This document shows, in pieces, positions 305 to 40,066 of a stretch of 64,000 bases of DNA. This DNA comes from Candidatus Thorarchaeota archaeon (GTDB taxonomy: Archaea; Asgardarchaeota; Thorarchaeia; Thorarchaeales; Thorarchaeaceae): positions 64,001 through 128,000 of the forward strand of contig SDNP01000002.1 of the NCBI GenBank assembly GCA_004524445.1. The letters are read 5' to 3'. Each line of letters starts with the position of its first letter. The stretch's first letter is position 1. The translations under genes were made by a program, and so were the position numbers. The notes below the pieces were generated by a model that was given only the letters and a program-made list of their open reading frames with translations, had not been told where the DNA came from and searched no databases.

Positions 305-1498
305 CTACTCCAGAAGATTGACCATGAATTGCTCAAGTAAATCTGCAGGAACATCTGATAATCCGATAAGAGTTGTTTGACCTCTTTGGCCCACTCCCGA
401 TTTCTTCGCGTCTATTACGCCATGGGCGTCCAAGTCCTGGACCCATTCCCAAATTTGTGTATGTGCCCTAGATTGTTTTCCGAACTCTTCGCAAACTGCT
501 TGGTACATCTCCTCAACTTCTCCAATCGTTACATATACACTTCTTGCTTCTTTCAACTGGCGCGCTGCAGCGAGTAATAACAGTTTATTATGTAATGGGA
601 GTGTTTCGAAAACCTCTTCTCGTAGTTCTGGGTGAGTATCAGCTTTGGCCTTTCGAACATAATCGGGGATTATTACATCAGAGCCAACTGCATCAGCTTG
701 TTTCCCACCACGCCAAAGGAGTTCGATGGCATACCGTGCATCACCCCTATTGGAGGCAATGTCACAAATGAGGCTAATCGTTTCCTCCATAATTGCCCCA
801 GGTTCAAAAGCCATTTTAATTCTCTCAGAGAGGATATCTCTCAACGCATTTGAGGTGTATTTTTCAAAATATAGGACGTTGCGTTGTAATGTACTCAATG
901 TACTGGCATCAAAAGCACTATCATCTAAGGGTATCTTTCGACCAATACCAATAATCGATAGCCTTTGGGGAGCATTCAGCCGATCATCCATTAATCGAGT
1001 CAGATTGTATATTATGTCTACACCCTTTTGCTTGATGAAATAATCAAGTTCGTCCAGTATTAACAAAAGATATCGATCCTCGGCATCAAGCACTTCTATA
1101 ATCATTTGAAGAACTTCTTCAGGAGAATGCCCTCGACGGGGAAAGTTGGGTTTGAATGTTCGAAGAATCTTAAGGTATACAAGATATTCACTCTTATTGA
1201 CTCTGCAGTTGATGTGTATTTTGCGTAATCTTATTTTTCGCCTTACTGCAGCTTGAACCAATTGCTCAGAGAATCTCTTTGTAACTGCAGTTTTTCCTGT
1301 CCCAACAGGCCCTTGGATAATGAATTTCTGACTTGTCTGTCCAGGAGAAGTGATCATTGTTTTGAAACTTTGAGCCAGTGTTCTCAATTCTGTTTCTCTG
1401 TGTGGGAGATTCTCTGGTACATAGTCGATTGACAAATATTTCTCTGATTTGAATACGCTAGTCCTTCCGAGTTCATCCTCAACATAGTCACGCGGCAT
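305..1498 (-). CDS. cdc6: Orc1/Cdc6 replication initiator
   Basis: YVPENLPHRE, Walker A GPVGTGKT, Walker B LILDELD, GDARYAIELL, C-terminal wH ending GQRGQT; likely start ATG at 1498 (MPRDY) within ORF 305..1531. Confidence 0.95.
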   Translation of the reverse strand: MPRDYVEDELGRTSVFKSEKYLSIDYVPENLPHRETELRTLAQSFKTMITSPGQTSQKFIIQGPVGTGKTAVTKRFSEQLVQAAVRRKIRLRKIHINCRVNKSEYLVYLKILRTFKPNFPRRGHSPEEVLQMIIEVLDAEDRYLLLILDELDYFIKQKGVDIIYNLTRLMDDRLNAPQRLSIIGIGRKIPLDDSAFDASTLSTLQRNVLYFEKYTSNALRDILSERIKMAFEPGAIMEETISLICDIASNRGDARYAIELLWRGGKQADAVGSDVIIPDYVRKAKADTHPELREEVFETLPLHNKLLLLAAARQLKEARSVYVTIGEVEEMYQAVCEEFGKQSRAHTQIWEWVQDLDAHGVIDAKKSGVGQRGQTTLIGLSDVPADLLEQFMVNLLE

Positions 1499-24860: not shown

Positions 24861-25441
24861 AGAACATGTGTTCTAGTTTCTAGTGAAAGTTCTTGGCATA
24901 TTTGTACATCTATGATTGTGTTGCGGCCAGAGAGAGCAACGCCAGAAGAGTGTCCTTCACAAAGGAGCTCTACGGATTCACCTATTCCTGGAAGACCAAA
25001 TCAGGTATGAAGACGAAAAGAAAGATTGGACTCATTGAGGAGTGTATGGGAGCTGAGCCAGTCACAGACTCTGCCATTCTAGTCCCCGATAGCTGCAAGG
25101 ATCAATTTGACGAACTCTTTGTATATTATCGGGATATACTAAAAATCAAAATCTTCAAAGTGGAGTCAGAAGTATATTTGTAATACAAATAATACATTTT
25201 TGTAGGAACAATAGAACACGTGTTCTAAATCTAACCAGACCCCATTATTTCCAGTGGAAGACAATATAAATTACAAAGAAGATAATTAGTAAAGTATAAA
25301 TAGTAGTATATGTACCCCGATATTATCTCCATTTCTATATATATCATACAACGGGTTCCTGGATCCTCATCCATTTCTATACTTCCAGTGGAAACGAGGG
25401 GGTATATTAGCCAGCGAATATTAACTAGAACACGTGTTCTA
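24861..25441. repeat. Three AGAACAYGTGTTCT palindromes
   Basis: 24861-24874, 25212-25227 and 25426-25441 (last two are the perfect 16-mer TAGAACACGTGTTCTA). Confidence 0.9.
24893..25183 (+). CDS. Small conserved-type archaeal protein (possible ferredoxin-like/PaaX-Cas2-like fold) adjacent to origin
   Basis: 96 aa; YIYD, RRVSFTKELYG, basic hairpin KTKSGMKTKRKIGL, SAILVP; fold is inference. Confidence 0.55.
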   Translation: MAYLYIYDCVAARESNARRVSFTKELYGFTYSWKTKSGMKTKRKIGLIEECMGAEPVTDSAILVPDSCKDQFDELFVYYRDILKIKIFKVESEVYL

Positions 25442-25460
25442 AGTACTATTCCAGTACCAC
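25184..25460. other. Replication origin (oriC): inverted ORB pair flanking an AT-rich unwinding region
   Basis: ORB on minus 25239-25259 (TTCCACTGGAAATAATGGGGT), ORB on plus 25383-25403 (TTCCAGTGGAAACGAGGGGGT), ~120 bp AT-rich spacer with TCCATTTCTATA direct repeat (25328, 25370). Confidence 0.85.
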
Positions 25461-25526
25461 AACACTGATAGACGATATGAGTGTCGCTGAAATTGTTGGC
25501 ATGATATGCCTTTGGAGAATTAGGTC

Positions 25527-27422
25527 ATGACAAAACCGAAGGACTTGTTGGAAGATAATCCTGGTAAGAGTATTCTATTATTGGCAAACGAAGCCATTGC
25601 AAGGGGAACTCTTGAGGCTGGAGTTAGACTAGTCGCATTGTATCCTGGGACGCCCAGTAGTGAAATTGGAAATAATCTCACCTTCATGGCGCCACATATC
25701 CCGAACTTCTACTTTGAATTCAGCACGAACGAAAAGGTGGCTATGGAGGTTGCTGGTTCTGCTGCAGTAGCCGGGGTTCGCTCAATGATGGTCTGCAAGG
25801 GACCGGGTCTCAATGTAGCAGCAGACCCGTTTTTCTCCTTGGCCTATGTTGGTGTCCGAGGGGGAATGGTTATCGTTGTTGCAGACGACCCCAGTATGTG
25901 GAGTTCACAGAATGAAAATGACAGTCGGTATTATGCACTGATGGGTAATATGCCCATGATGGAACCCTCAGATCCTGCAGAGGCAAAATCAATGCTTCTT
26001 GAAGCCTACAAATTTTCAGAGAGTCTAGAGCTTCCGGTATTATTTAGGACCACAACTCGTGTAAATCATACTCGTGCCCCTGTAGTATTGGGGCCCATTG
26101 AGGATCGGCCAGATAAAGTGGAATTCGAAAAAGAACCAACTCGATTTGTTCCAGTTCCCTCTGTTGCACGACAACGTCATCCCTGGTTGTTGAAACAAAT
26201 AGACGCCGCAAGAGAATTGTCGGAACAAAGCGAACTGAATTTCGCCGTCGGCGAGGGTGACCTCGGAATCATTACTAGCGGGGTCTCGTACAATTATGTA
26301 ATGGAATCACTTACCCGACTAAATACTAAAGCAGAAATTCTCAAACTTGGCATTACTCATCCTGTACCCGAACGGAAGATCATCGAGTTTCTGAAGCGCC
26401 ATGAGAGCGTTGCTGTGGTGGAAGAGTTAGAACCCTTCATCGAGACTCATGCTCGTCGACTGTCTAATCTACATGACCTATCCAATGTTGAAATTCTAGG
26501 AAAGGAACAAGGATACTTCCCAAGAGTGTATGAATACACTCCCAAAATAGTTACCGAAGGACTAGCAAAAATACTAGACAAAGAATTACCCGTAGATTGG
26601 AAGCATTTAGATACACTCAGCGAAGAGATTCCTGATCTCCCTCCGCGACCACCTCTGTTGTGTGCCGGCTGTCCGCACCGAGCGTCATATTTTGCTATCA
26701 GAACCGCCACTCGCGGAAAAGCAATCTATCCATCTGACATAGGATGCTATACACTTAGCATTGCACCACCATTAGAAACCGCCGACATATTGTTTGACAT
26801 GGGGTCTTCTATCAGCACAGCATGTGGATTATCTCAAGTGACTGGACAAGAAGTTGTTGCGAGTATTGGAGATAGTACTTTCTTTGCTTCAGGTCTGCCT
26901 GGCATCGTCAATGCCGTATATAATGGCCATCCGATTAGCCTAGTAGTCCTTGATAACCGAACGACAGCCATGACTGGTCATCAACCACACCCGGGGACAG
27001 GAGTCACCGGTATGCAGGAGAAGGTTGAACCACTAGACATTGAAGGAGTCTGCAAGGGACTGGGTGTCAAATACACCAAAACAGTGGACCCCTTTGAGCC
27101 ACTTGCCGATCTTGTGGCTGAAGTACGTAAAATGGTTGAATGGGTCAGGGAGAATAAGGCACCGGCTGTCCTAGTATCCAAAGCACCATGTGCTTTACTC
27201 ACGGCTGCAGAACGACGTCGAACCCAAGAGCAACCAGAGCCATACTTTGTGGATTCGGAGATGTGTACAGGATGCAAACGATGTCTCAACAGATTTGCCT
27301 GTCCTGCTATGTATTGGGACTCAGAAACAGAGAAGGCTGCCATTGATGAAACACTCTGTAATCTATGTGGGAGTTGTGTATCTGTCTGTCCTCAAGGGGC
27401 CATAGTACAGAAGGAGGAATGA
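25527..27422 (+). CDS. iorA: Indolepyruvate:ferredoxin oxidoreductase alpha subunit
   Basis: YPGTPSSEI, NEKVAME, GLNVAAD, PPRPPLLCAGCPHR, DIGCY, IGDSTFF, two C-terminal 4Fe-4S motifs. Confidence 0.95.
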   Translation: MTKPKDLLEDNPGKSILLLANEAIARGTLEAGVRLVALYPGTPSSEIGNNLTFMAPHIPNFYFEFSTNEKVAMEVAGSAAVAGVRSMMVCKGPGLNVAADPFFSLAYVGVRGGMVIVVADDPSMWSSQNENDSRYYALMGNMPMMEPSDPAEAKSMLLEAYKFSESLELPVLFRTTTRVNHTRAPVVLGPIEDRPDKVEFEKEPTRFVPVPSVARQRHPWLLKQIDAARELSEQSELNFAVGEGDLGIITSGVSYNYVMESLTRLNTKAEILKLGITHPVPERKIIEFLKRHESVAVVEELEPFIETHARRLSNLHDLSNVEILGKEQGYFPRVYEYTPKIVTEGLAKILDKELPVDWKHLDTLSEEIPDLPPRPPLLCAGCPHRASYFAIRTATRGKAIYPSDIGCYTLSIAPPLETADILFDMGSSISTACGLSQVTGQEVVASIGDSTFFASGLPGIVNAVYNGHPISLVVLDNRTTAMTGHQPHPGTGVTGMQEKVEPLDIEGVCKGLGVKYTKTVDPFEPLADLVAEVRKMVEWVRENKAPAVLVSKAPCALLTAAERRRTQEQPEPYFVDSEMCTGCKRCLNRFACPAMYWDSETEKAAIDETLCNLCGSCVSVCPQGAIVQKEE

Positions 27423-27425
27423 AAA

Positions 27426-28037
27426 ATGAGTGGTAATACTAGTAATACAGACACTGTTGATATTGTAATCTCTGGCGTTGGAGGACAGGGAGTCTTGACC
27501 CTGGCAGAAATCTTGGCGAAGGCAGCACTAGCCGAGTCCAAAAATGTTAGAGTTGGAGAAATACATGGGATGGCTCAACGTGGGGGTCACGTCATCTGTA
27601 CAGTTCGTATCGGACCTGATGTAAGTGGACCTATTGTTGATCCCGGTACAGCAGACATCTTAGTTGGTTTCGAACCAATTGAAACGCTGCGAGAGATAGA
27701 AAGCATAAGTAAGGACGGCAAAGTACTCATGAACTCAAATGTCCTTCATCCCGTAGCAGTATCAATGGGCAAAGCTGAATATCCAAAACATGCTGACATT
27801 GTAGAATCGATTAAACCATTCACCAAGAATCTCATACAATTTAATGCAATGAACCTTGCAAAGGAAGCGGGTAGTGATAGGGCAATGAATATGGTCATGT
27901 TTGGTGCAGTCATTGCACTTAACCTCACAGGCATATCAACAAACACAGCAAAGAAGACCATTAGAAACACATTCCCCGGGCGCTATGAGGACATCAACAT
28001 CCGCGCTTTCGAATCTGGAATGAAGCAAATCAATTAA
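27426..28037 (+). CDS. iorB: Indolepyruvate:ferredoxin oxidoreductase beta subunit
   Basis: GVGGQG, EIHGMAQRGG, NMVMFGA. Confidence 0.93.
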   Translation: MSGNTSNTDTVDIVISGVGGQGVLTLAEILAKAALAESKNVRVGEIHGMAQRGGHVICTVRIGPDVSGPIVDPGTADILVGFEPIETLREIESISKDGKVLMNSNVLHPVAVSMGKAEYPKHADIVESIKPFTKNLIQFNAMNLAKEAGSDRAMNMVMFGAVIALNLTGISTNTAKKTIRNTFPGRYEDINIRAFESGMKQIN

Positions 28038-28088
28038 TAGCACCAAACATCTGTTCAGGACCAGATAATTTTTGTATTATTTGTAATA

Positions 28089-30455
28089 CTATCTTGTAAG
28101 TCTGCTTGCTGCAACTGCCACTTGCCCAACTGAAATACCACCATCTCCAGGGGGAATTGAGTCTTGAAGGAGAGGCTCAAGCCCATGACGATTCAATTCG
28201 GCTATTATTGCTCTTGTGATAATTCTATTCAAGGCAACTCCACCAGAAAATCCAACCTGTCGTATGCCATGATTATCAGCCGCTTGAGCTGCAATTCTGG
28301 CAAGCCCCCTTCCTACTGCTTGTTGTACTGCCATGGCCAGGTGTGATCTCTTTTCTCCTTGTTCTTTCATTTCAAGGAGTCGAAGAAGAAGATGCTCTGT
28401 GTCAAGCTGAGGACTTCCATTTGGTGATACTATATGTGGCTCAATTGATAGCTTTGTTGGCACAGCAACTGCTTCCAGTTTCATTGGACACTCCCCATCA
28501 TAGCTATTCTGGAAACATACTCCAAGAGCAAATGCAGCTGCATCTAGCACACGACCGGTACTGCTACTCTCAATCGTGTTTATATTTTTGTCAAGGGCAA
28601 TGAGCATCTGCTCGAAGGATTCCTCATTCATGCATATATCAGCTGCAACTTCTACATCTCGGACGTACCCAAACAACTCCTCTCTGCTTAACGAACCTCC
28701 TACGATTCCCATAAACGGTCGTGCCGCATATTTTGCTGATAGATCTCCACCAACATACAACTGAGGAGTCAAACCTCCAAACTTGGAGAAATGCCTCCCA
28801 TTCCCAACTAGGACTTCTCCTCCCCATGCTTCGCCATTAGGCCCGTAGCCATAACCATCGGCTGTAATACAGATAATACTTGTATCAGTCGTTAGTTTGT
28901 TATCAACTAGGATGGAAGCCAAATGAGCATGGTGATGCTGAACTTGGACCAAGGGAATATCCTTCTCTTGGGAGATGCGCCTTGCAAGATCAGTACTGAG
29001 AAACTCAGGATGTAAATCACAAGCAATACCATCAAGTTTCTCGACGCCAATGAGACTCATCAGATGTTGATACGCATCCCTAAGAAATTGAATATTCTCT
29101 AATTGGTCCGTATCACCAATGTATTGAGTAGGATATATGCTAGTTGCCTTCAGAATTGACGCGGTAGCTTTTTCTTCTGGACCCGTAGCAACAAGATTAA
29201 GACCATCACCAGGATAAGAAATTGGAATTGGTTCTGGCACATAACCTCTCGATCGTCTTATGAAGACAGAATTTTCATTAGTTACGTACTTGATTACAGA
29301 ATCATCAGCTCTTTGCCATATTCTTCTATCATGTACCAAGAAGTAGTCTGCAATCCCAGAGAGGTCTTTTCGCATTTTCTTTGGATCGATGTACATCGGT
29401 ATGCCAGTAGGGTTGGCACTTGTCAAAACAATGGCAGGTTCATCCATATAATGAAAGAGGAGATGATGAGAAGGAGCGTAGGGGAGCATAACACCTACGG
29501 TGTCCAGTCCGGGAGCTATGCTATCCAATGAATCTCGTGGTATTATATTCAACGCATTTTGTGACTCTCTTTTTCTAACAAGGACAATAGGACGTCTCCA
29601 CGAAAGAAGATCGTCTAATTCGTTCTCCGACGGATTGAAAGCAGACTCAACAATTGACTTGTTTCTGGCCATAATTGCGAACGGCCGCTGCTCTCTCATC
29701 TTCAATAAACGAAGTCTATTGATTGGCCTCGAGTTTCTAACCGCAGTGGCTAGATGAGTACCGGATATGCCTTGTACTGCCACGATTGACCCCGACTCTA
29801 TTAGCTCTGCCGCACTTTTCACTGCATTTTCTTTGGCAATATTGTTGCCCCTATCATTGAAAAGCTGGTATGTAGGACCACACTCCTCACATGCTGTTGT
29901 CTGTGCATGATATCTTCTATCCAACGGGTCTGTATAACCGGTATTACAAGTATTACATAACGGAAAATCAACCATGGTTGTGTGAGGTCTATCGTATGGA
30001 AGATCAGTGATAGTAGAGTATCTTGGTCCGCAAGCTGCACACGAAATGAATGGATAGAGATACCATCTCGATTGAGGATCGAATAGCTCTTCAACACAAG
30101 TGTCACAGATCGAAATGTCGGGTGGAATCACTGGTTCCGCGTTACCAGTTTTTTTTGCAGAGGATTTGATTATGGAAAAATCGTCGAATGAGTTCTGCTT
30201 TGGCAACCATTCTGTGTCCAGTTGTTCAATTCTTGAAATGGATGGAGGGTTCTCTTTCAACTCATTAAGCAAAGACTTGATTCTTGTCTTCTTTCCTTCG
30301 ACAACAATCTCAACACCTGCATCTCCTAGATTCAAAACATATCCTTTCAAGGATAGTCCCTTTGCCACTCGATATACAAATGGTCTAAATCCCACACCTT
30401 GTACAATTCCATTGATGTGGATTTTAGCTCTGACACTCAGTTTATGAAACCTCAC
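28089..30455 (-). CDS. hypF: Hydrogenase maturation carbamoyltransferase HypF
   Basis: GIVQGVGFRPFVY acylphosphatase domain, Zn fingers, RRYHAQ, HHHAH, DGYGYG, PPGDGGISVGQ. Confidence 0.97.
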   Translation of the reverse strand: MRFHKLSVRAKIHINGIVQGVGFRPFVYRVAKGLSLKGYVLNLGDAGVEIVVEGKKTRIKSLLNELKENPPSISRIEQLDTEWLPKQNSFDDFSIIKSSAKKTGNAEPVIPPDISICDTCVEELFDPQSRWYLYPFISCAACGPRYSTITDLPYDRPHTTMVDFPLCNTCNTGYTDPLDRRYHAQTTACEECGPTYQLFNDRGNNIAKENAVKSAAELIESGSIVAVQGISGTHLATAVRNSRPINRLRLLKMREQRPFAIMARNKSIVESAFNPSENELDDLLSWRRPIVLVRKRESQNALNIIPRDSLDSIAPGLDTVGVMLPYAPSHHLLFHYMDEPAIVLTSANPTGIPMYIDPKKMRKDLSGIADYFLVHDRRIWQRADDSVIKYVTNENSVFIRRSRGYVPEPIPISYPGDGLNLVATGPEEKATASILKATSIYPTQYIGDTDQLENIQFLRDAYQHLMSLIGVEKLDGIACDLHPEFLSTDLARRISQEKDIPLVQVQHHHAHLASILVDNKLTTDTSIICITADGYGYGPNGEAWGGEVLVGNGRHFSKFGGLTPQLYVGGDLSAKYAARPFMGIVGGSLSREELFGYVRDVEVAADICMNEESFEQMLIALDKNINTIESSSTGRVLDAAAFALGVCFQNSYDGECPMKLEAVAVPTKLSIEPHIVSPNGSPQLDTEHLLLRLLEMKEQGEKRSHLAMAVQQAVGRGLARIAAQAADNHGIRQVGFSGGVALNRIITRAIIAELNRHGLEPLLQDSIPPGDGGISVGQVAVAASRLTR

Positions 30456-30598
30456 TGTTCTGAATTCGTGTTATCGATATTAATACCATGAAGTGGCAAA
30501 TAATCTCTGTATCGATATAATTGTATTACAAGTATTACAATTAGCAATCGACACTCACAGGTAGGTTTTCTTAAGGCATGGCACATACCCAATTGTGA

Positions 30599-31021
30599 AT
30601 GACATTGACTTCCTCAAGGACACCTCATCCGAAACCGGGGAGAGAACCCATAGCTACCCCCTCAATCCTCGCAAACATTCCCGACTGTCTTCGGCAAATA
30701 CTTGTCGAGGCCGCTGATAACTCAAAGAAGAGAAAGAAATCAATTCTGATATCTAGTAATAGTTTGGCTAATAGATTCATTCTAGAACGATGGGGAATAC
30801 GACCATCTCAGCGCAGGAAATTCAGAAATCTATTTTCACAAATTCGCAAACACTGTAGGAAGATATTCGATCATCTTCTCAATAGGAAAAGAATGGAATT
30901 CGATATGAATTTGAATCGTTATTTGTTTGGAATCTACAAGTTCGATGAAATCCGCGGAAACACAATCCTTGCTTTTGTACAAGTTCCTGAGAGAGAAGGA
31001 TGGACACTTCCCTGCAAGTAA
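30599..31021 (+). CDS. Basic hypothetical protein (possible nucleic-acid binding)
   Basis: 140 aa, Lys/Arg-rich helical core; flanked on both sides by GTAWTAC arrays. Confidence 0.6.
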   Translation: MTLTSSRTPHPKPGREPIATPSILANIPDCLRQILVEAADNSKKRKKSILISSNSLANRFILERWGIRPSQRRKFRNLFSQIRKHCRKIFDHLLNRKRMEFDMNLNRYLFGIYKFDEIRGNTILAFVQVPEREGWTLPCK

Positions 31022-31198
31022 TATGTGTAATACAGTGAAACCTAAGCAAAATCTTTATCCACTATTCGGCGTATACAAAAACGTATCCGTAGAGAGTAAC
31101 AGAAAACCGATTTGACAAAGTCCTCTCATAACTCTTTAAAATAGAAAATAGAGGATTATGAGCCCTTTTCAAAAAACCTCGTTCTCTCCAAAAATCAG

Positions 31199-31747
31199 GT
31201 GGAGATTATGACTCAAGGCACCAACGACGTGAATTTCGAGAAGATAAGGAAGGCTTCCCAGGGCACCAAGAGAGTGCTAAGGGAACCAATCATGAAGTCA
31301 TTACTACAAAATTCCCTCCTCACGGAAACGCAACTAGAAACGCTCCTAATTGATTTGCTTGTCGAAGACAATTTCGGTAAGCACATTCCGTATGATACGA
31401 AGGCCTCACTGCGTACAACTGAAAATGGCAAGGGTGTTTCTAGAGGAGCATTCAATAGGACACTTCAACAAGCTCGCGAAAATATTACAAAAAGCATCTA
31501 CACCATGCTTCTGTTAGGATACCTTGGTCTATTTGAAATTGCCATATTTCGGCCATTTGAAGAAGTTGCAGCCAAGATAGGCGACTATAGACATATCAGG
31601 GAGGTATTGGCAGGAAGAGAAAAGTTAACAGAAGAGGATCTTGAGAGTCATAGGGCCGCAGAAGAAACAATCATTTCTGCACTCCATGAGCTGGCATCGC
31701 CACTGAATCTTAAAACTGAACTATCAAAAGAGACTGGATCTGAATAG
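31199..31747 (+). CDS. Conserved-type archaeal HTH-like protein
   Basis: SLLTETQLETLLID...GVSRGAFNRTLQQARENITKSIYTMLLLGYLG (HTH-like recognition helix). Confidence 0.65.
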   Translation: MEIMTQGTNDVNFEKIRKASQGTKRVLREPIMKSLLQNSLLTETQLETLLIDLLVEDNFGKHIPYDTKASLRTTENGKGVSRGAFNRTLQQARENITKSIYTMLLLGYLGLFEIAIFRPFEEVAAKIGDYRHIREVLAGREKLTEEDLESHRAAEETIISALHELASPLNLKTELSKETGSE

Positions 31748-32213
31748 AGTCTCCGTGCAAGCTTCTTCCGTATTATTCCAGGAATCAATGATTGCGAAGT
31801 AAAAAAATTGGCACGAATGTGTCGTGTTTTATGACTGAACTCGTAAGCGACGAGTAGTTCCGCACAGTCCTACCTACACTGTATCTACTTGGAGGTATAT
31901 TTGTATGAGGAGATAGAGATAGCAATGCAAGTTGAGATCTGTGACTTATGAAACAAACCTCGAAACCAGCATTCAATCATTACTCCACAACACACTCACT
32001 CTATATAGGAATACATTGATACATAGTTCTAATCATAGAACAAGCATTTTTGGCACTATTATTCGTATTTTTAATAGTAATAAATTATTTACAGAAAAAT
32101 TTGCACGAATCATATTATTATTTGTAATACAAATAATACGTCACCCCCTCATTTTGAAAAGTAATCTTGTTTTAATACAAAATGAACACATGAACAGTGG
32201 TAGTGAATAGAGA

Positions 32214-33428
32214 TTGGATTACAGTAAGGCACGAAAACGATTACGGGAACAAGTGAGGAAGAAAATCCAGCAGCTATCGGAAATCGAGCTCAGTAAAGCA
32301 ATAACTAATGCCATTGGCGAGAGGCGGATTAGGGATTTAATTGATTATCTTATTGGTATTGAATTAGAGGAGGGTTGGAACCAATCTCTAGACTATTTGG
32401 GGGATTCACTAAATCGAGAGTATGAAATCCCTCCACTGACCGGAAGGAAGACAAGAAGAATGGAACCCCTCAAATTTCGGGAAGTCCTTTTTTCTATCTT
32501 CGATTGCCAAGGGCTAGAAGCAATCAATATAGACACCATGACCATAATCTCAAAACTCCATAATGCACAATCAATCACAAATGCAGAGATATTCTTTAAA
32601 GAAATAGTTAATGAAAAACTTCAGTGTCATTTGAAGGATTCCAACCTTCTCTTCATTAATATCGATGGTGTGAAATCTTACCTTGACACCAACCTGATAA
32701 ATCAGATCCATGAAAAGATGGAGGAAAACCTGTTGTCAGTTTCACTGAAGAGCAATTCCGAGTCGGTTGACATATCACCATTATGGTACACAGAGTATGG
32801 TCGGACAGCTCTGTGCAGACTTGGGATACAGGGAAGCCATATCGACAAACAAACACTCGACATGGTATTATCCGTATTACCAGTATCACAAACTGTTCGG
32901 GGCAATATTACTAATAATATGCATGCAAGACGCCTGAATCCTCCCCTGAATGATGAATATCAATCTCTGCTTAGAGCAATGATTGAGCAAGATATTATGA
33001 CTCTTGCAAAACTTGGTAGTCGAAATGCGATTCCTCTCATGAACTACTTGCTTGAAGAATCTGTTGACACTTTTAATTCAGAATACACCTCCCAAAAATA
33101 TTCCAAAATAGCAGAGCAGTTATCCAATCATTTGTTTATCCGGTCAATCGATTCTATCCTGTCGTTTGAAAAGATGACAAGGGCCGATGATCATCGCATC
33201 TCAAGTCTAGCAATTATTGCTCTAGGCAACTACTACCACGAATCCGCAGTTATCATCTTGGCAGAAATACTGTGCAGAACAAAAAACAGTGATCTTGTAA
33301 ACTACGCATCACAATCACTTAGACGGATCAAGAGCAAATTTCCTGAAACCAAACCTATACTCAAGAAATTGATGGATACTATGCACAATAATTGCAAGCC
33401 GCTCAGACAATTTTTGGAGAGTTACTAA
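32214..33428 (+). CDS. Hypothetical helical protein with C-terminal HEAT/PBS-like repeat
   Basis: 404 aa; DHRISSLAIIALGNY...AVIILAEIL...LVNYASQSLRRI. Confidence 0.6.
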   Translation: MDYSKARKRLREQVRKKIQQLSEIELSKAITNAIGERRIRDLIDYLIGIELEEGWNQSLDYLGDSLNREYEIPPLTGRKTRRMEPLKFREVLFSIFDCQGLEAINIDTMTIISKLHNAQSITNAEIFFKEIVNEKLQCHLKDSNLLFINIDGVKSYLDTNLINQIHEKMEENLLSVSLKSNSESVDISPLWYTEYGRTALCRLGIQGSHIDKQTLDMVLSVLPVSQTVRGNITNNMHARRLNPPLNDEYQSLLRAMIEQDIMTLAKLGSRNAIPLMNYLLEESVDTFNSEYTSQKYSKIAEQLSNHLFIRSIDSILSFEKMTRADDHRISSLAIIALGNYYHESAVIILAEILCRTKNSDLVNYASQSLRRIKSKFPETKPILKKLMDTMHNNCKPLRQFLESY

Positions 33429-33515
33429 CCAACTCAACACAGAAATCATGTATTATATGTAATACAAAGCTAAATCACAACAGAATTAAAACTGTAGTGG
33501 TAGTGAACCAGTCCC

Positions 33516-34904
33516 ATGAGCGGTACATTAGATTCCAATGCAATGCAGATTGGCAAATTTTTCAATCCAAATAGTGTTGCCTTGGTCGGAGCTTCGGCTG
33601 ATTATAGAAAACTGGGAAATTCAATTCTCATGAACTTACTTGCGTCAGAGGTAGAAGTATATCCTGTCACTCGAAGTAGAACCCAGGTTCTGGGAGTAAA
33701 GGCATATCCCAGTCTCATAGATTTGCCGAAGAGAGTTGATCTCGTTATCATTGCAGTTGCCGCCAAATATTGTCCCAATCTGATGCAAGATGTAAGGCAG
33801 GCAGGTGCTCACCATGCTGTGATAATCTCTGGAGGTTTCAGTGAAACTGGTGATGAAGGAGCTAAACTGGAAGAGCTTCTTGTGGAAGAAGCCAAGAAGA
33901 ATGAAGTACGGATTATTGGTCCAAATTGCGTTGGGGTTTCCAACAGTCGTTTATTCAATGGCACATTTACGATGATGCCCGAAAGAGGTAATATCGCCTT
34001 AATTTCGCAAAGTGGTGCTCTTGGTGGAATGCTGATATACACGACACGGTCGAAACGAATAGGGATGAGTAAGTTCGCAAGTATTGGAAATGCAGCTGAT
34101 GTTGAATTTACCGAGCTACTCGATTATTTCAGTAAGGACCCAAAGACATCTGTTATCGCTGTCTATATTGAGGGTGTCGAACATGGCCGTGCACTTTACG
34201 AGTCATTAAGAACTGCATCGCGGAAAAAACCCGTAGTGGTTCTTAAGGGTGGAAAAAGCAAAGCGGGAAGCAAAGCAACGCTGAGCCACACAGGGTCTCT
34301 TGCCGGGTCACCTCGATTGTTTGATGGGATGATTAAACAAGCAGGTTGTGTTTGTGCACCCACCTTTGACTCGTTCTTGGAAGTCTGCAAGTTATTTGAC
34401 TATCAGCCTCTGCCACAAGGTCGTAATATTGGTATTATCAGTAATACAGGGGGTGCCGCAGTCTTAGCAACTGACGCTGCATCCGCATTGGGGCTCAAGA
34501 TACCTACACTTGAAGAATCCACAATGAAAGAAATGAGACAAGCAATGTCACCAATGGCATCCGTTGAAAATCCTGTTGATGTTGTGGCAAGCGGGGGTAG
34601 AAGAGAATACAAACTGGCAACAAAGTTAATGCTGGAAGATAACCATGTTGACATGCTATTGGTAATCTGTGGAGTCCCAACTTTTGCGGGAATGACTCAG
34701 ACAGAGCATGCTGCTGGTACGTTGGAGGGAATTAGGACTGCAAATAACAACAAACCCGTTGTTGGTGTTTGGCTTTCAGGAGATGTGGGTAAACCTGGAA
34801 AGGATCTACTTGAGATGAATCGAATTCCTTGTTATGACGATCCTTCACTGGCGGCGTTATGCATGGAACGAGTTGCTTCATATTCACTTCATGAACAGAG
34901 GTAG
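33516..34904 (+). CDS. acdA: Acyl-CoA synthetase (ADP-forming) alpha subunit
   Basis: FNPNSVALVGAS, IISGGFSE, IIGPNCVG, ISQSGA, SHTGSLAG phospho-His, NPVDV. Confidence 0.9.
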   Translation: MSGTLDSNAMQIGKFFNPNSVALVGASADYRKLGNSILMNLLASEVEVYPVTRSRTQVLGVKAYPSLIDLPKRVDLVIIAVAAKYCPNLMQDVRQAGAHHAVIISGGFSETGDEGAKLEELLVEEAKKNEVRIIGPNCVGVSNSRLFNGTFTMMPERGNIALISQSGALGGMLIYTTRSKRIGMSKFASIGNAADVEFTELLDYFSKDPKTSVIAVYIEGVEHGRALYESLRTASRKKPVVVLKGGKSKAGSKATLSHTGSLAGSPRLFDGMIKQAGCVCAPTFDSFLEVCKLFDYQPLPQGRNIGIISNTGGAAVLATDAASALGLKIPTLEESTMKEMRQAMSPMASVENPVDVVASGGRREYKLATKLMLEDNHVDMLLVICGVPTFAGMTQTEHAAGTLEGIRTANNNKPVVGVWLSGDVGKPGKDLLEMNRIPCYDDPSLAALCMERVASYSLHEQR

Positions 34905-34931
34905 ATATGTTTCTGTAATACAATTATTACC

Positions 34932-35222
34932 TTAGCTTTCAAGATGAACTCCAGCGATATTTGGAAATTCTTCCTGAACTGCATCTCTCAGCTTGCGTTC
35001 TACCCACATGCTCAGATTAATTGCCCGTTCTGTTCTTACAGCCTGGAGGCAGGACCTCAGGTCTGTACTAACGCTAAAAGACATGATTGGACTATTCCTT
35101 TCTTTATTTGGAACGGCTACACTTTCTTGTTGCTTAGCTTCTGCAGTGGTTTCAATTTCTTCCTCTGTTGTATCCTTGTCGCGTTTCTCCTCTTCTTTCC
35201 TATATTTTCCTAAGAGACTCAA
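34932..35222 (-). CDS. Small ribbon-helix-helix protein with disordered charged N-terminus
   Basis: C-terminal beta strand IMSFSVS, helix DLRSCLQAVRTE, turn, helix NLSMWVERKLRDAV; N-terminal ~45 aa charged and low-complexity; start directly abuts ATPase stop. Confidence 0.7.
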   Translation of the reverse strand: MSLLGKYRKEEEKRDKDTTEEEIETTAEAKQQESVAVPNKERNSPIMSFSVSTDLRSCLQAVRTERAINLSMWVERKLRDAVQEEFPNIAGVHLES

Positions 35223-36197
35223 CTATCTTACCTCCTTCAATATACTTGCATACGCCTCTGAAACCAATCTGGCAATTTCCACATTTATTTCAGGGCTACC
35301 ACTCTCCCGAAGGTTTTCAGCTGCAACCTGCTGGCACCCTCGAGCCAGCATACGAATATCCCGTGGATTTCCTCCTGCAGCATCATTGATCACCTCAATT
35401 GCTTCTTCATGGAATGGATAAACATCAAAATCTGTAGGATCAAAGCTATCGATTTCCCCTTTAGCATACGCTATTCTTCTGCCAATGAATTCTTTCGCTT
35501 TGCCGTCTTCGAGCTTCGGAATGTCCAACGGTTCTGTCCTATCAGCTATTTGAGGGAGAAAATTAAGCATTGCATTCCAATACTCTGCAGTTCCACTCAT
35601 CACGAGTGTAACTATTGGTTCATCCAAGGTTCTGGGATACTCATCTTTCATTTCTTCCGTAGGAAGATCGGCAAGGTATCTGAGTTTGTGAAAGGCAGCC
35701 TCTTGATTATCTGCAACATCCTCGATGAAAAGAGCAGTTCTACTCTGTTCCTCTATGTAGCGACGTACACACTCCTTTGCAACCGCCTCTATAATTTGAG
35801 AAGACTCCCAAGAGCGTCTATACTTGATTCTCAACGAGTCGGCAATGGCAGCAGCCATTTGTTTCTCATATAGACCAGTCATTCCAACGTACCCTGTGAC
35901 AAATTTATTTCCCCTTCTATCGGCCAATGTGGGAAGGTCTCTCAATGCCAATAACATTAGAGTACTCTTTCCCGAACCTACAGGGCCTCTAAGGAAAATA
36001 TGACGTTCATTGGTTATTATTAGATCCACAATACTATCAAGAAAATCAGGGTGCTCCACATAGAGCCTCGAGTCCGGCATTTTGAATCCTCGAAATGGTG
36101 AGAATCTTGCGCCTATCTTCTCCTCCCACGCTCGAAGTGTTTCTTTTCGAGTATTGAAATGACGAATCAATGCGGATTCGTGAACTGCAATTGTCAT
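35223..36197 (-). CDS. ExeA/TniB/MuB-like AAA+ ATPase (AAA_22-type)
   Basis: N-terminal SPF motif, Walker A GPVGSGKST, variant Walker B LFIEDV, sensor-1 LVMSGT, Arg finger IADR, sensor-2 GGNPRDI. Confidence 0.8.
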   Translation of the reverse strand: MTIAVHESALIRHFNTRKETLRAWEEKIGARFSPFRGFKMPDSRLYVEHPDFLDSIVDLIITNERHIFLRGPVGSGKSTLMLLALRDLPTLADRRGNKFVTGYVGMTGLYEKQMAAAIADSLRIKYRRSWESSQIIEAVAKECVRRYIEEQSRTALFIEDVADNQEAAFHKLRYLADLPTEEMKDEYPRTLDEPIVTLVMSGTAEYWNAMLNFLPQIADRTEPLDIPKLEDGKAKEFIGRRIAYAKGEIDSFDPTDFDVYPFHEEAIEVINDAAGGNPRDIRMLARGCQQVAAENLRESGSPEINVEIARLVSEAYASILKEVR

Positions 36198-36390
36198 TGT
36201 TTCAATTCCTTTGTATCACAAGTAGTGTTTGTATTACAATATTTCGATGGCTTTTCCTACATAAATATTGCGAGAGAAGTCAGCTTCTGTATCATGGTCG
36301 TTTCCATACGGAACCTTTTTGAGCAACTACAAACTGCCAGAGAGCTAGCAGAGATAGAAACCTGTTTCTAACCTCTGGGAGGAATAAGAA

Positions 36391-36669
36391 GTGAATCTAG
36401 ATAGAATTCGACGAGTCCTTAATTCAATGATGATTTTTACTTTCCTAATTTTTGGAGCGCTCGTTGGGATAATATTCCTCTTAGATACTCCTCTCACTAA
36501 ATCCGTTGCCGCTCTCCCGTTCGCCTTTCTGTTTATATCTGCAATGACTCTCATCACAACCGGTCAGATTAAAGAGAAACCAAAGGCCGCAATGAAATAT
36601 GTACAAGAGTGGCTTGCCATATGCATATTTGTCGTACTAATTGCAGCCGCAGTTTATCTCGTTTCCTAA
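36391..36669 (+). CDS. Small three-TM membrane protein
   Basis: 92 aa with three hydrophobic segments; GGAGG RBS upstream; divergent from ATPase. Confidence 0.7.
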   Translation: MNLDRIRRVLNSMMIFTFLIFGALVGIIFLLDTPLTKSVAALPFAFLFISAMTLITTGQIKEKPKAAMKYVQEWLAICIFVVLIAAAVYLVS

Positions 36670-36742
36670 TACAATAGTTTTAGCACTTCATCTACCTCAA
36701 CGATTTGCCTCAGCAACTAGTCAGTTATACAAAGAGAGAACT

Positions 36743-37380
36743 ATGAGTAAAATCCTGCCTGGAACAAAGACCACAAGGATGTAATTACTTCGAATTAAGA
36801 ACAGGAAAGAGCTTGGAGAACGAGGTCATAATCTGCTAAAAGAAAAGCGTGATGCATTGATTATGGAATTCTTCAATACCACAGCCGAAATAAAAAAGGC
36901 AAGACAGGGTGTGGAAGCTGCTCTCTTAGAAGCCTACTCTGACTTAACACAAGCCAAGATGATGATGGGCCCAGCTCGAGTAAAAGCATTCATCTATGCA
37001 AGCATGATGAAGAACAGGTTGAATATCAAAACCAGATTGCTTATGGGTGTTCGAGTACCTGTCTTGTCAGTTGAATAGGAAATACCTGAATTGCCCATGC
37101 TTTAGCTGGCTCCAGTACCAAACTTGATATTATGGCTAAAAGATTCCAAGAGGCTTTGATTGCCATATTGGGACTAGCTGAAATTGAATGGACCCTGAAG
37201 CGACTAGCACTTGAGATTGAACGAACTAAGCGACGAGTATCTGCTCTGGAAACCATTGTTTTACCTCGCTTGGAAGCAACCGCACGGTTTGTCAGGCTGG
37301 CATTAGAGGATCGGGAAAGAGAAGAATCCATTCGCCTTAAGATAATCAGAAACCGGATGCAAGAAGAGAAGTCTGCTTAG
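36743..37380 (+). pseudogene. atpD: A/V-type ATP synthase subunit D pseudogene
   Basis: TTRM*LLRIK...GHNLLKEKRDALIMEF, MGVRVP, EIERTKRRVSALE...REREESIRLK; TAA at 36782, TAG at 37076, -1 frameshift near 37097. Confidence 0.85.
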
Positions 37381-37769
37381 CTCTTTCTCAATTTCAATAT
37401 TGCAGCGGCTAAATCGCCTTTTGTTTCTTCAAGAGTTTGCTTTGCCGTTTGAATATCTGTTCCAGTCTGTTCAGCAACCAGTGCTGCATCTTCCATGGGT
37501 ATCTCAACTTTCTTCTCTTCAATCGGAGCTGCCTTGCCACCCTTTGTAATATCTCTCTCAGTTTTGGATCCGCTGATTTGATAGGACTCATTGCCAGCTT
37601 GTTTCACAAGCGCTACTTGTGGGTCTTCTATCACCCATTCCTTGTCAGCAAATCGAATGATCACTTCATTTACTCCATCAATGTCTTTTTGTTCTATGCC
37701 CATCTTCTTCATCATTCTAGCAAGTTGCTTAGGTGACAGTCCTCTGAAACCCATTGTTTTTTTCCTCAT
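37377..37769 (-). CDS. nac: Nascent polypeptide-associated complex protein
   Basis: SPKQLARMMKKMGI, EVIIR, C-terminal UBA (EDAALVAEQTG...GDLAAAILKL); start at 37769. Confidence 0.93.
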   Translation of the reverse strand: MRKKTMGFRGLSPKQLARMMKKMGIEQKDIDGVNEVIIRFADKEWVIEDPQVALVKQAGNESYQISGSKTERDITKGGKAAPIEEKKVEIPMEDAALVAEQTGTDIQTAKQTLEETKGDLAAAILKLRKS

Positions 37770-37830
37770 GATATATTCGTGTTTACATACTACACTAGGT
37801 TCAATTCTATCAAACGATAAAACAATTACG

Positions 37831-38676
37831 TTATCTGTTAGAATCAAGGTTGATATCAAAGACCATATGACTAACGCCCGGTGAATACTTCTTAATCGGT
37901 CTGGAAGAAATTTTGGCCATGAATCCATATTCTGAAGATTCAGTAATAATTGTATTACGGATTTTCCTCTCATCATTTCCATGTACTAAGCTGTGCATAT
38001 GGATAATCCCGCCCCGGAATCGTAATCCATTCAACGCATGTGGCAAATAATCAACTGTATCATGTAGATATCCCATCACAATTCTATCCGCATCCCTAAA
38101 TGTCACATCTCTGCAGTCTCCTAATACTGCCGTCATATTCTCATGAACCTCATTCATTCTGATGTTCTGACATAGGAAATCGTATGCCAAGTCATTAATA
38201 TCAATGGCCAAGACATTTGCCCCTGAATGAAAAGCTATTGGCAATGAAAACTGGCCGACACAAGCAAACATGTCAACAACATGCTCATCTGAACTAACCT
38301 GCTGAGAGAGAAAAATTCTCTCATTCACATTGCCTCGAGAAAATGTAATTCGCATCGGATTGAGTTTGAATTCTATCCCGTTCTCGGTATGAGTTGTTGT
38401 TGTGTTCTTACTACCAGCCACTAGTTTGTAGTTCGGAATTCGTTTTTGACCACGTGTTGGCCCCATTCTTACTCCAACGGATTTGGATCTAGACTCAAAT
38501 TCTAATGTGAGCTCTCCAATAACATCTGCCAAAGGTAGTAGATCGGGGTGAATACTCAATAGCACCACGTGACCGATTAATTGATACCCCTTGGGAAGCT
38601 TAGCAGGGTCCTCTATAGAATTGCCAATCGCATTCACTAAGAAATCATAATATTTCATGCTCTCAACTTCAATCAA
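37831..38676 (-). CDS. Trm5/Tyw2 (Met-10+) family SAM-dependent tRNA modification enzyme
   Basis: YQLIGHV, HTENG, FSRGNVNER, VVDMFACVGQFSLP, ADRIVMGY, KKYSPG. Confidence 0.85.
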   Translation of the reverse strand: MIEVESMKYYDFLVNAIGNSIEDPAKLPKGYQLIGHVVLLSIHPDLLPLADVIGELTLEFESRSKSVGVRMGPTRGQKRIPNYKLVAGSKNTTTTHTENGIEFKLNPMRITFSRGNVNERIFLSQQVSSDEHVVDMFACVGQFSLPIAFHSGANVLAIDINDLAYDFLCQNIRMNEVHENMTAVLGDCRDVTFRDADRIVMGYLHDTVDYLPHALNGLRFRGGIIHMHSLVHGNDERKIRNTIITESSEYGFMAKISSRPIKKYSPGVSHMVFDINLDSNR

Positions 38677-38694
38677 GGAAAACGATTGCTGATT

Positions 38695-39906
38695 TTAGCC
38701 GTACATATGCGATTTAATCTCGTTAGCTCTTCCTCTATTCCTGACTTTCTCTATGGCCATTCTAAAGTCAGTCTGAGTGACATATCCGCGTTCAGCTCGA
38801 ATTGCAAACATACCTGCTTCAGTGACAATTGCCTTCAAATCAGCTCCAGTAGTTCCCCGAGTCGCTGAAACAAGCTGATTATAATCGACATCAGAATCTA
38901 CAGTTAGTGGCCTAGTATGAATCTTGAAGATTTCTTTTCGACCCTTTTCATCAGGTTTTGGAAAGTCTATGATTCTGTCGAATCTCCCAGGACGGAGCAA
39001 AGCCGGATCCAAAATGTCGGGTCTATTTGTGGCACCCAAAATTGCAACTTGACCTCGACTTTCAAATCCATCTAATTCGCTCAGAAGCTGCATCAAGGTT
39101 CTCTGAACCTCTCGGTCTCCAGATGTTGCTATGTCCAGCCTTTGTGAACCTACAGCATCGAGCTCATCAATAAACACTATTGCTGGAGATTTCTCTTTGG
39201 CCAACATGAATATCTCTCGCACCAAACGAGCACCTTCTCCAATGAACTTCTGAACAAGTTCCGATCCAATGACACGAATAAATGTCGCATTTGTCTGATG
39301 CGCAACTGCTCTCGCACTCAATGTCTTGCCTGTTCCTGGCGGGCCTGTAAGTAAGACACCTCTGGGAGGCTCAATTCCAATTTGTTCAAACAACTCGGGT
39401 TTCAGCAGGGGATACTCGACAGTTTCTTGTATCTCTCTGAGCTGCTCCTCTAGGCCACCAATATCTACATATGACACTTGAGGTTTCTCTTCAATCTCCA
39501 TCGCACGAATGAGTGGATCTCTCGAAGGAGGGAGTTCTTGTGTTACTGCAAACGATCTTTGATTGAGGGCAACACGCGTTCCAGATTGTAACTTCTCACT
39601 CGATATAGAAGATGAAACATGAACAACAAAATTTGGTCCAGTTGAGCTTTTCACTATTGCTCGACCATCTTCAAGCATTTCGACAATGGTAGCCGTAATC
39701 AATGGCGATTGTCTTAGCTTCTCCAGTTCTGTCCTAAGAGTTTGAGTCTCCTTCTCAAGCCTACTACATTCGGCGTGGAGGATTTGCTTCTCTGTTTCCA
39801 GTGCTCTAAGACGTCTCTCCAAATGTCGAGCATAGCTCTGTGAATATGAAGAGTCCTCGACGCCACCATCTTCTTTTGCATCAGTACTACCTGGCAATCG
39901 ATGCAC
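38695..39906 (-). CDS. pan: Proteasome-activating nucleotidase
   Basis: Coiled coil, KSSTGP OB domain, [27 protein letters not shown]-terminal HbYX (MYG). Confidence 0.97.
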
Positions 39907-40066
39907 CTCGACCTCACTTTCTATAGTATCGATTTAAGGATATCCTTAACGTTCACCATTTTTTGTATCAGGGTTTCAATTCTCTACATAATGTTATTTT
40001 CACATTCCATTTTCGTAATACCAGTATTACAATACAGGGGAGAAATGTTTTACAAAAGGAATGAGA

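Follow-up and report, generated by a model that had tools for sequence, protein, structure and literature searches.

An origin-linked field of periodic GTAWTAC boxes and an operon for an initiator-clade AAA+ ATPase and a ribbon-helix-helix protein in Thorarchaeota

Introduction

In type Ib partition systems, such as ParF-ParG of TP228 and delta-omega of pSM19035, a small ribbon-helix-helix (RHH) protein binds tandem short repeats, autoregulates its operon, and acts on the ATPase through a flexible N-terminal tail. A 7-bp palindrome that recurs at a spacing shorter than one turn of the helix is what RHH dimers classically bind cooperatively, MetJ and omega being examples, with tandem boxes of 8 and 7 bp, respectively. 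The parS centromere sites of bacteria cluster near the origin. For Asgard archaea, the closest prokaryotic relatives of eukaryotes, we know of no account of how chromosomes are organized and segregated. Here, we describe in a 64,000-nucleotide stretch of a Thorarchaeota genome (G000:C33:64001-128000, hereafter the window) a field of 15 short arrays of the box GTAWTAC, which abuts an origin recognition box (ORB)-type origin and has at its center an operon encoding an AAA+ ATPase and an RHH protein. Field and operon form one origin-linked system, for which a literature search found no published description.

Two archaeal systems invite comparison. SegAB of the Sulfolobales consists of the ParA-type ATPase SegA, the RHH protein SegB, and segS repeats (PMC12139799, PMC8682754). 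The archaeal RHH regulator aCcr1 binds the 9-bp palindromic box (A/T)GTATTAC(N) according to electrophoretic mobility shift assays (EMSA) and chromatin immunoprecipitation sequencing (ChIP-seq) and has hundreds of dispersed promoter targets (PMC9976878, PMC9976892). Like SegAB, the Thorarchaeota locus is a chromosomal two-gene operon for a nucleoside triphosphatase (NTPase) and an RHH-containing predicted site binder, with repeat sites beside the operon and further sites beyond. As in ParABS and SegAB, repeated cis sites adjoin the operon with few or none elsewhere. The RHH gene, whose product would be the counterpart of their centromere-binding protein, is translationally coupled to the AAA+ gene. 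Unlike SegAB, the NTPase is an initiator-clade AAA+ protein and not a deviant-Walker ParA, the sites make up one tight field where those of SegAB are scattered, and there is a third, helix-turn-helix (HTH)-like gene as well as strict linkage to the origin and to cdc6. From type Ib partition the locus differs in its ATPase superfamily and in a 15-kb field written into housekeeping genes, and a partition function would be assigned to it by analogy. With aCcr1 and CdrS, small archaeal RHH cell-cycle regulators, it shares the RHH fold, and the aCcr1 box is practically the same 9-bp palindrome. However, aCcr1 has ∼58 amino acids (aa), no tail, and no partner ATPase, whereas the RHH protein described here has a conserved tip, a linker, and an AAA+ partner; its candidate sites are confined to one 15-kb field, some within genes, and are not dispersed over promoters genome-wide.

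Results

GTAWTAC arrays with an exact 9-bp period form a single field

The genome analyzed is a metagenome-assembled genome of a Thorarchaeota (Asgard) archaeon, 2,792,701 bp in 64 contigs. The window contains 24 perfect GTAWTAC heptamers against 4.6 expected, 19 of them between positions 25180 and 40030, an interval for which the genome-wide rate of 0.076 per kb predicts ∼1.1. An initial annotation of this DNA had counted the same 19 heptamers but had set them against ∼3 expected in 15 kb, whereas the expectation is nearer 1 to 1.6. The singles it had noted outside the field (47629, 53730, and 63935) are indeed isolated, but they are not the only ones, since two more lie at 14616 and 22689. 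Dimers, defined as GTAWTAC-N2-GTAWTAC (9-bp period) with at most one mismatch, occur 16 times in the window against 0.01 expected, each within 25180-40030, and a scan of the whole 2,792,701 bp returned the same 16 matches and none besides. Under a relaxed definition, 14 arrays were found in the field and 12 weak two-mismatch arrays across the remaining 2.78 Mb. The distribution is thus not uniform, a uniform one being an outcome that the initial annotation had named as telling against its proposal. The claim of tandem arrays at an exact 9-bp period at ∼15 sites was also borne out. In 35 relatives' loci of ∼21 kb each, 376 dimers had a period of 9, against 0, 2, 0, 2, and 5 at periods of 7, 8, 10, 11, and 12, respectively.

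The whole field (25180-40030) consists of 15 arrays with two or three units of 9 bp each, a count that includes the degenerate array at 36213-36237; neither field nor arrays are assigned a strand. Their spacing is more even than chance, with a minimum of 492 bp (P ∼ 0.0004) and a coefficient of variation of 0.55 (P ∼ 0.01). About half of the arrays occupy intergenic regions that bear promoters, two are found where convergent genes end, and six fall within open reading frames (ORFs), namely, those of iorB, hypF (two arrays), a HEAT-repeat protein, acdA, and trm5, exactly as annotated. Array 1 (25180-25195, two units), ∼20 bp from an origin palindrome, has an equivalent site in many relatives. 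Array 2 (27433-27448) has two perfect units 7 nt into iorB and lacks family-wide conservation because of an N-terminal indel. The dimer scan placed array 3 (28074-28089, two units) between the convergent ends of iorB and hypF, array 6 (30523-30538, two perfect units) in the divergent promoter region of hypF and a gene for a 140-aa protein, array 7 (31018-31033, two units) at the stop of the latter gene, array 8 (32115-32139, three units) upstream of the HEAT-repeat gene, array 10 (33450-33465, two units) 51 to 66 bp upstream of acdA, array 14 (37943-37958, two units) in the 3' part of trm5, upstream of NAC, and array 15 (40015-40030, two perfect units) ∼110 bp upstream of the PAN gene. Array 12 (34915-34930, two units), just past the RHH stop codon and between convergent genes, has a counterpart shortly after the RHH gene in most relatives. 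Array 13 (36213-36237, three units, the middle one degenerate) lies 16 to 40 bp upstream of the AAA+ ATG and is a putative operator. Arrays 12 and 13 thus bracket the operon, which runs from 36197 to 34932, as had been reported. The field as a whole spans the housekeeping genes iorAB, hypF, acdA, NAC, trm5, and PAN, with the operon at its center.

The boxes are conserved and under selection at the DNA level

Dimers were present in 24/24 sampled genomes of the same family (f1). With few exceptions, their counts were above those of the reversed control, and where positions were listed, the dimers of a genome fell into a single cluster. The other families in the same sampling showed no enrichment. 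Around the orthologous operon, 60 loci gave zero reversed-control matches.

The in-gene sites were evaluated by comparing third-codon-position identity in site windows with that of the whole gene in codon alignments of 43 to 48 orthologs, a check that the initial annotation had suggested. Identity was 0.75 to 0.82 at the sites versus 0.31 to 0.40 gene-wide, and the sites ranked as the best or nearly best window in hypF (both sites), the HEAT-repeat gene, and acdA. Array 4 (28864-28888, three units), in hypF, scored 0.81 versus 0.37 (rank fraction, 0.0013). Array 5 (29932-29956, three units), in the same gene, scored 0.79 versus 0.37, was the top window, and was present with ≤1 mismatch in 39/43 orthologs. 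For array 9 (32865-32889, three units), in the HEAT-repeat gene, the values were 0.75 versus 0.31, with ≤1 mismatch in 33/44 orthologs, and this site was kept although the protein is only ∼32% identical across the family. Array 11 (34423-34447, three units), in acdA, was again the top window (0.82 versus 0.40), with ≤1 mismatch in 42/48 orthologs. The boxes of array 5 encode Cys-Asn-Thr twice in the zinc-finger segment CNTCNTGYT of HypF, whereas the apparently equivalent segment of the sister family, which belongs to the same order, reads CDECYKEYT. The DNA motif has therefore apparently shaped the choice of amino acids in hypF.

The operon encodes an initiator-clade AAA+ ATPase lacking a winged helix

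The first gene of the operon (35223-36197, minus strand) encodes a 324-aa AAA+ ATPase. It was found as a single copy in 53/60 family genomes at 76 to 98% identity, and its product is the most conserved protein of the neighborhood (median identity, 84% versus 33 to 78% for the neighbors). The structure model has a predicted local distance difference test (pLDDT) score of 91 and stops at the lid helices. Two independent aligners, Foldseek and VIA, ranked Orc1/Cdc6 first, with TnsC and MuB close behind. Core and lid superpose best on these proteins, at Z scores of 17 to 19 over 231 to 263 residues, and the top matches were 7jgr_G, 2qby_B, 1w5s_A, and 1fnn. The protein therefore has the initiator-clade AAA+ module of the Orc1/Cdc6 initiators, in agreement with its annotation as a non-ParA AAA+ ATPase. 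It yielded no Pfam match to the C-terminal winged-helix domain (PF09079), and real cdc6 genes were detected elsewhere in the genome. Unlike Orc1/Cdc6, TnsC, and MuB, it has no winged helix or transposon context, and it carries an ExeA-like N-terminal extension and ED instead of DE at Walker B. TnsC and MuB coat DNA under the control of partner proteins and thus offer a model for a DNA-bound ATPase that would be controlled by the RHH protein.

The P-loop, GPVGSGKST, the Pfam results, which were limited to weak matches to AAA_22 and AAA_16, and the initiator-clade fold all place the protein outside the ParA/SegA deviant Walker-A family. Nor was it assigned to the ExeA/TniB/TnsC/MuB family (AAA_22), since the AAA_22 match remained below the curated cutoff (24.2 versus 27 bits) and no transposase or secretion genes were found near this single-copy gene, which is syntenic with housekeeping genes. 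The sequence family is very small, with 26 matches among 1.84 billion representatives, and sequence searches of the PDB with the AAA+ and RHH proteins returned nothing meaningful.

The RHH protein carries an invariant tip and is the best candidate for the box reader

The second gene (34932-35222, minus strand), always directly downstream of the AAA+ gene, encodes a 96-aa protein in which the alignment delineates the tip SLLGKYRKEE, a variable charged linker, a VPNKERKSP patch, and the ribbon-helix-helix core. The protein itself had no Pfam match. Its ortholog at locus L071 passes RHH_1 (PF01402; 23.2 bits versus a cutoff of 20.5) and aligns with it through the whole core, which assigns both to the CopG/MetJ/Arc type of ribbon-helix-helix proteins. 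The annotation as an RHH protein is supported; its N-terminal tail, annotated as disordered, is conserved and flexible. An AlphaFold model of the monomer was poor (pLDDT, 67), a single long helix, which was to be expected of an obligate dimer, and it was not used. By hhalign, the RHH core aligned in register with the viral aCcr1 homolog SIRV2 ORF59b, weakly, at a probability of 22%, compared with 3% for the control RHH protein ORF56b; tblastn of the core against phage genomes gave nothing.

Across lineages, the tip is an invariant SLL(G/Q)KYRKEE, followed by the variable charged linker and a strand-helix-helix core. It is kept across 47%-diverged lineages, and the RHH protein is the sole carrier of the motif in this genome. 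In a metagenomic relative (L075:486-2472; AAA+ 41% identical), a gene for a 66-aa RHH protein without the tip lies ahead of the AAA+ gene. Right after the AAA+ gene comes that of a KaiC-family ATPase, whose N terminus carries the tip, as SVLSKY(R/K)K, three times. The tip resembles a docking peptide that can be transferred from protein to protein. Because it is invariant across deep divergence and occurs in three copies on the KaiC-like ATPase that follows AAA+, it probably contacts the AAA+ protein.

Upstream of the AAA+ gene, an alignment of 14 genomes contained a sole conserved block, the three-unit array 13, situated between a TATA-like element and the ATG. Since the boxes are palindromes repeated at less than a helical turn, since an array occupies the promoter of the protein's own operon, and since aCcr1 binds such a box, the RHH protein is, by analogy, the best candidate for their reader.

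Boxes track the operon in other lineages

A tie between boxes and operon is decided by f27 and the sister family because the neighborhood differs there, yet the boxes or a variant of them center on the operon. In five f27 genomes (2.9 to 4.1 Mb; AAA+ 46 to 48% identical), 9/10, 10/10, 11/11, 11/12, and 15/17 dimers lie within 2 to 3.6 kb at the operon, and the cluster starts ∼55 bp upstream of the AAA+ gene where the contig allows. At the f27-related locus L071, boxes are found just before the start codon, between both genes, and after the RHH gene, where six clusters occupy ∼750 bp of noncoding DNA. The sister family (AAA+ 69% identical) has no GTAWTAC dimers; instead, it uses the variant box TTAWTAA with an unchanged period of 9 bp (11 dimers, versus 0 to 2 at other spacings), and 11 of the 17 TTAWTAA matches in the genome fall within 14 kb around the operon. 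The motif is thus present in relatives that carry the operon, where its absence would have spoken against the initial proposal.

Four genomes, G041, G014, G048, and G065, lack both operon and motif. This was rejected as evidence, since the two of them that were checked, G041 and G014, also lack orthologs of acdA, hypF, and PAN, so that their assemblies are without the entire region. In another family, f12, an 84%-identical AAA+ gene lies at the edge of a contig (G150:C249:2-955), with a match in 1/19 genomes of the family; this is probably a misbinned Thorarchaeota contig. The most distant module (L076:8118-8539; AAA+ 32% identical) lies beside cdc6 and the gene for the small subunit of PolD and is devoid of TAWTA arrays; the intergenic region next to it, near cdc6, contains paired GTTAAC palindromes.

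The field abuts an ORB-type origin and the module is linked to cdc6

The ORB-type replication origin (25212-25441, unstranded) was recognized by its sequence signature, two ORB cores (25249 and 25383) on either side of an AT-rich center with flanking GAACACGTGTTC palindromes. Both cores read TTCCAGTGGAA. The edge of the field lies ∼20 bp from this origin, which the field adjoins on one side, so that the annotated start of the field at the origin (25.2 kb) is upheld. Three GAACAYGTGTTC palindromes are found, at 24862, 25218, and 25427, the latter two bracketing the ORB cores; that at 24862 precedes a 96-aa ORF (24893-25183) without a Pfam match. The origin palindrome recurs in most family loci, and in the sister family it takes the form AGAACATGTTCT (L064:2620, 2838). 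In most loci of the family, ORB cores or palindromes keep one and the same offset from the operon, ∼10.5 kb, and a closed relative chromosome, CP070658.1, has the same arrangement. A local GC-skew extremum coincides with the ORB site (∼C33:90 kb), which is only suggestive; chromosome-wide GC skew, sampled along CP070658.1, was weak, noisy, and uninformative on the origin.

The origin at the field has no adjacent cdc6, the nearest being ∼24 kb off. The module is located 3 to 6.5 kb from the best-scoring cdc6 in five genomes, which represent four distant families and of which four are single contigs. A further cdc6 gene is present at the start of the window (335-616), and a second ORB core lies beside cdc6 at G000:C33:24859-26139, outside the window but still on this contig, at a distance of ∼64 kb from the origin of the field. 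The two candidate origins are unusually close, and the box field is present at one only.

A third gene belongs to the module

Inside the field, the module has a third conserved gene (31199-31747, plus strand), which the initial annotation had overlooked. It encodes a 182-aa HTH-like protein with the segment GVSRGAFNRTLQQAR and weak similarity to DUF134. The Asgard families in which this protein was found are those that have AAA+, and in them it adjoins AAA+; in L071, L076, L079, and L064, its homologs directly adjoin the AAA+/RHH pair. Another neighbor, hypF, adjoins the module in every lineage examined (window, 28089-30455; L064:7495-9849; L071:12822-15140; L076:12075-14423) and has in-gene boxes in three lineages, at nonhomologous positions. 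Beside the operon, the gene for V-type ATPase subunit D (36743-37362) is split between two frames near 37090, as judged by tblastn with the intact gene of the sister family, a split to be explained by a frameshift, by decay to a pseudogene, or by an error of assembly.

Discussion

We propose, with a probability of roughly 0.45, that the complex is centromere-like or organizes the origin domain, i.e., that it marks the origin region for organization, segregation, or both. This reading is favored because the field is unique in the genome, because its many sites are spread evenly through coding sequence, because the f27 layout resembles a par cassette, because the RHH protein is tailed, and because no ParB domain was found in the genome. 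The three-gene module (AAA+ devoid of a DNA-binding domain, tailed RHH, and HTH-like) would then act in trans on the single origin-flanking GTAWTAC field as its cis target. Each RHH dimer would bind one palindromic heptamer, cooperatively along the arrays of two or three units, in the manner of MetJ and omega, and the array over the operon promoter would serve autoregulation. The invariant tip, on its long flexible linker, may dock onto or stimulate the AAA+ protein, which would bind duplex DNA in its ATP state and oligomerize like Orc1/Cdc6, TnsC, and MuB. In this way, ∼15 evenly spaced arrays could nucleate a higher-order complex over ∼15 kb beside the origin.

Several observations weigh against this proposal. 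The genome has six matches to ParA/MinD-type ATPases, which might serve segregation, although no SegB-, ParB-, or small RHH-type partner was found among the neighbors of these genes. The synteny of the family is conserved too strongly for origin, operon, and field to be considered separately. Periodic arrays were not detected in lineages whose AAA+ is ≤32% identical (L076, L078, and L079 were searched). With ED in place of DE at Walker B, the AAA+ protein looks more like a slow switch than like a motor. The boxes could be read by an unlinked RHH protein or by the HTH-like protein, and in our reading of the alignment, the RHH strand residues expected to face DNA do not obviously track the change from G/C to T/A at the outer box positions. 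Finally, replication control would account for the deep linkage to cdc6 just as well as segregation would.

Given this deep linkage to cdc6 and the origin, a role in replication control would suit the system about as well as one in segregation. The RHH protein, the HTH-like protein, or both would bring AAA+ to the boxes and so regulate how the adjacent ORB origin fires, is licensed, or is sequestered; titration or modulation of Orc1/Cdc6 or of minichromosome maintenance (MCM) loading would be one conceivable route. No DNA would be moved. We regard this as less likely, though it is the alternative to be taken most seriously: the best structural matches of AAA+ are Cdc6/Orc1, the module keeps its distance of 3 to 6.5 kb from cdc6 in distant families and, in most loci of its own family, of ∼10.5 kb from ORB elements, and the field abuts on one side an origin whose nearest cdc6 is ∼24 kb away. 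However, sites spread at ∼1-kb intervals over 15 to 28 kb, also inside genes, are unlike iterons or known origin-control sites; the f27 boxes hug the operon, ∼10 kb from cdc6; AAA+ is devoid of the winged helix that Orc1/Cdc6 uses for contacts with DNA and MCM; and at least one other ORB/cdc6 locus in the genome has no such field.

Two further explanations have less in their favor. The RHH protein may be an aCcr1/CdrS-like repressor, perhaps linked to the cell cycle, with the boxes as operators of the operon itself, hypF, acdA, iorAB, PAN, and NAC and with AAA+ as a coregulator. The position of the operon's own array, after the TATA-like element and before the start codon, the share of arrays in promoter-bearing regions, and the constant vicinity of hypF would all fit such local transcription control. 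It is nevertheless improbable, as no further site exists in 2.8 Mb, whereas aCcr1 has hundreds of dispersed targets; five arrays lie in coding sequence under DNA-level selection and two between convergent gene ends; the f27 arrays fill ∼1 kb of noncoding DNA in six clusters; and array spacing is even. Moreover, in-gene positions are nonhomologous between families, and therefore it is location that matters and not gene identity. Still less probable, to the point of being hard to credit, is a chromatin or structural maintenance of chromosomes (SMC)-type factor as the reader of the boxes, with the operon inside the field merely by conserved synteny. The conserved within-family synteny leaves room for it, but f27 and the sister family differ in neighborhood, yet boxes or the variant center on the operon in both; an array occupies the operon promoter in both f1 and f27; and tandem palindromes at a period below the helical turn typify RHH targets.

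The centromere-like reading leads to a broader and more doubtful proposition, namely, that several Asgard lineages may segregate or organize the origin region by means of an AAA+ protein derived from ORC/Cdc6 (ORC, origin recognition complex), which tailed RHH proteins would recruit to a regional multisite centromere next to the origin. The system is defined by a short box with an exact period, a small candidate binder, an ORC-like ATPase, a likely docking peptide, and the compact f27 cassette, which is suited to reconstitution. Whichever role holds, selection at the DNA level overrides codon choice and even amino acid choice in housekeeping genes. If the boxes act as a centromere, the system would bring to DNA partition a new NTPase class besides ParA, ParM, and TubZ, as well as a multisite regional centromere written into coding sequence, and a prokaryotic ORC-like protein would function in chromosome organization rather than initiation. 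If it controls the origin instead, it would add a new layer of replication control by an ORC paralog.

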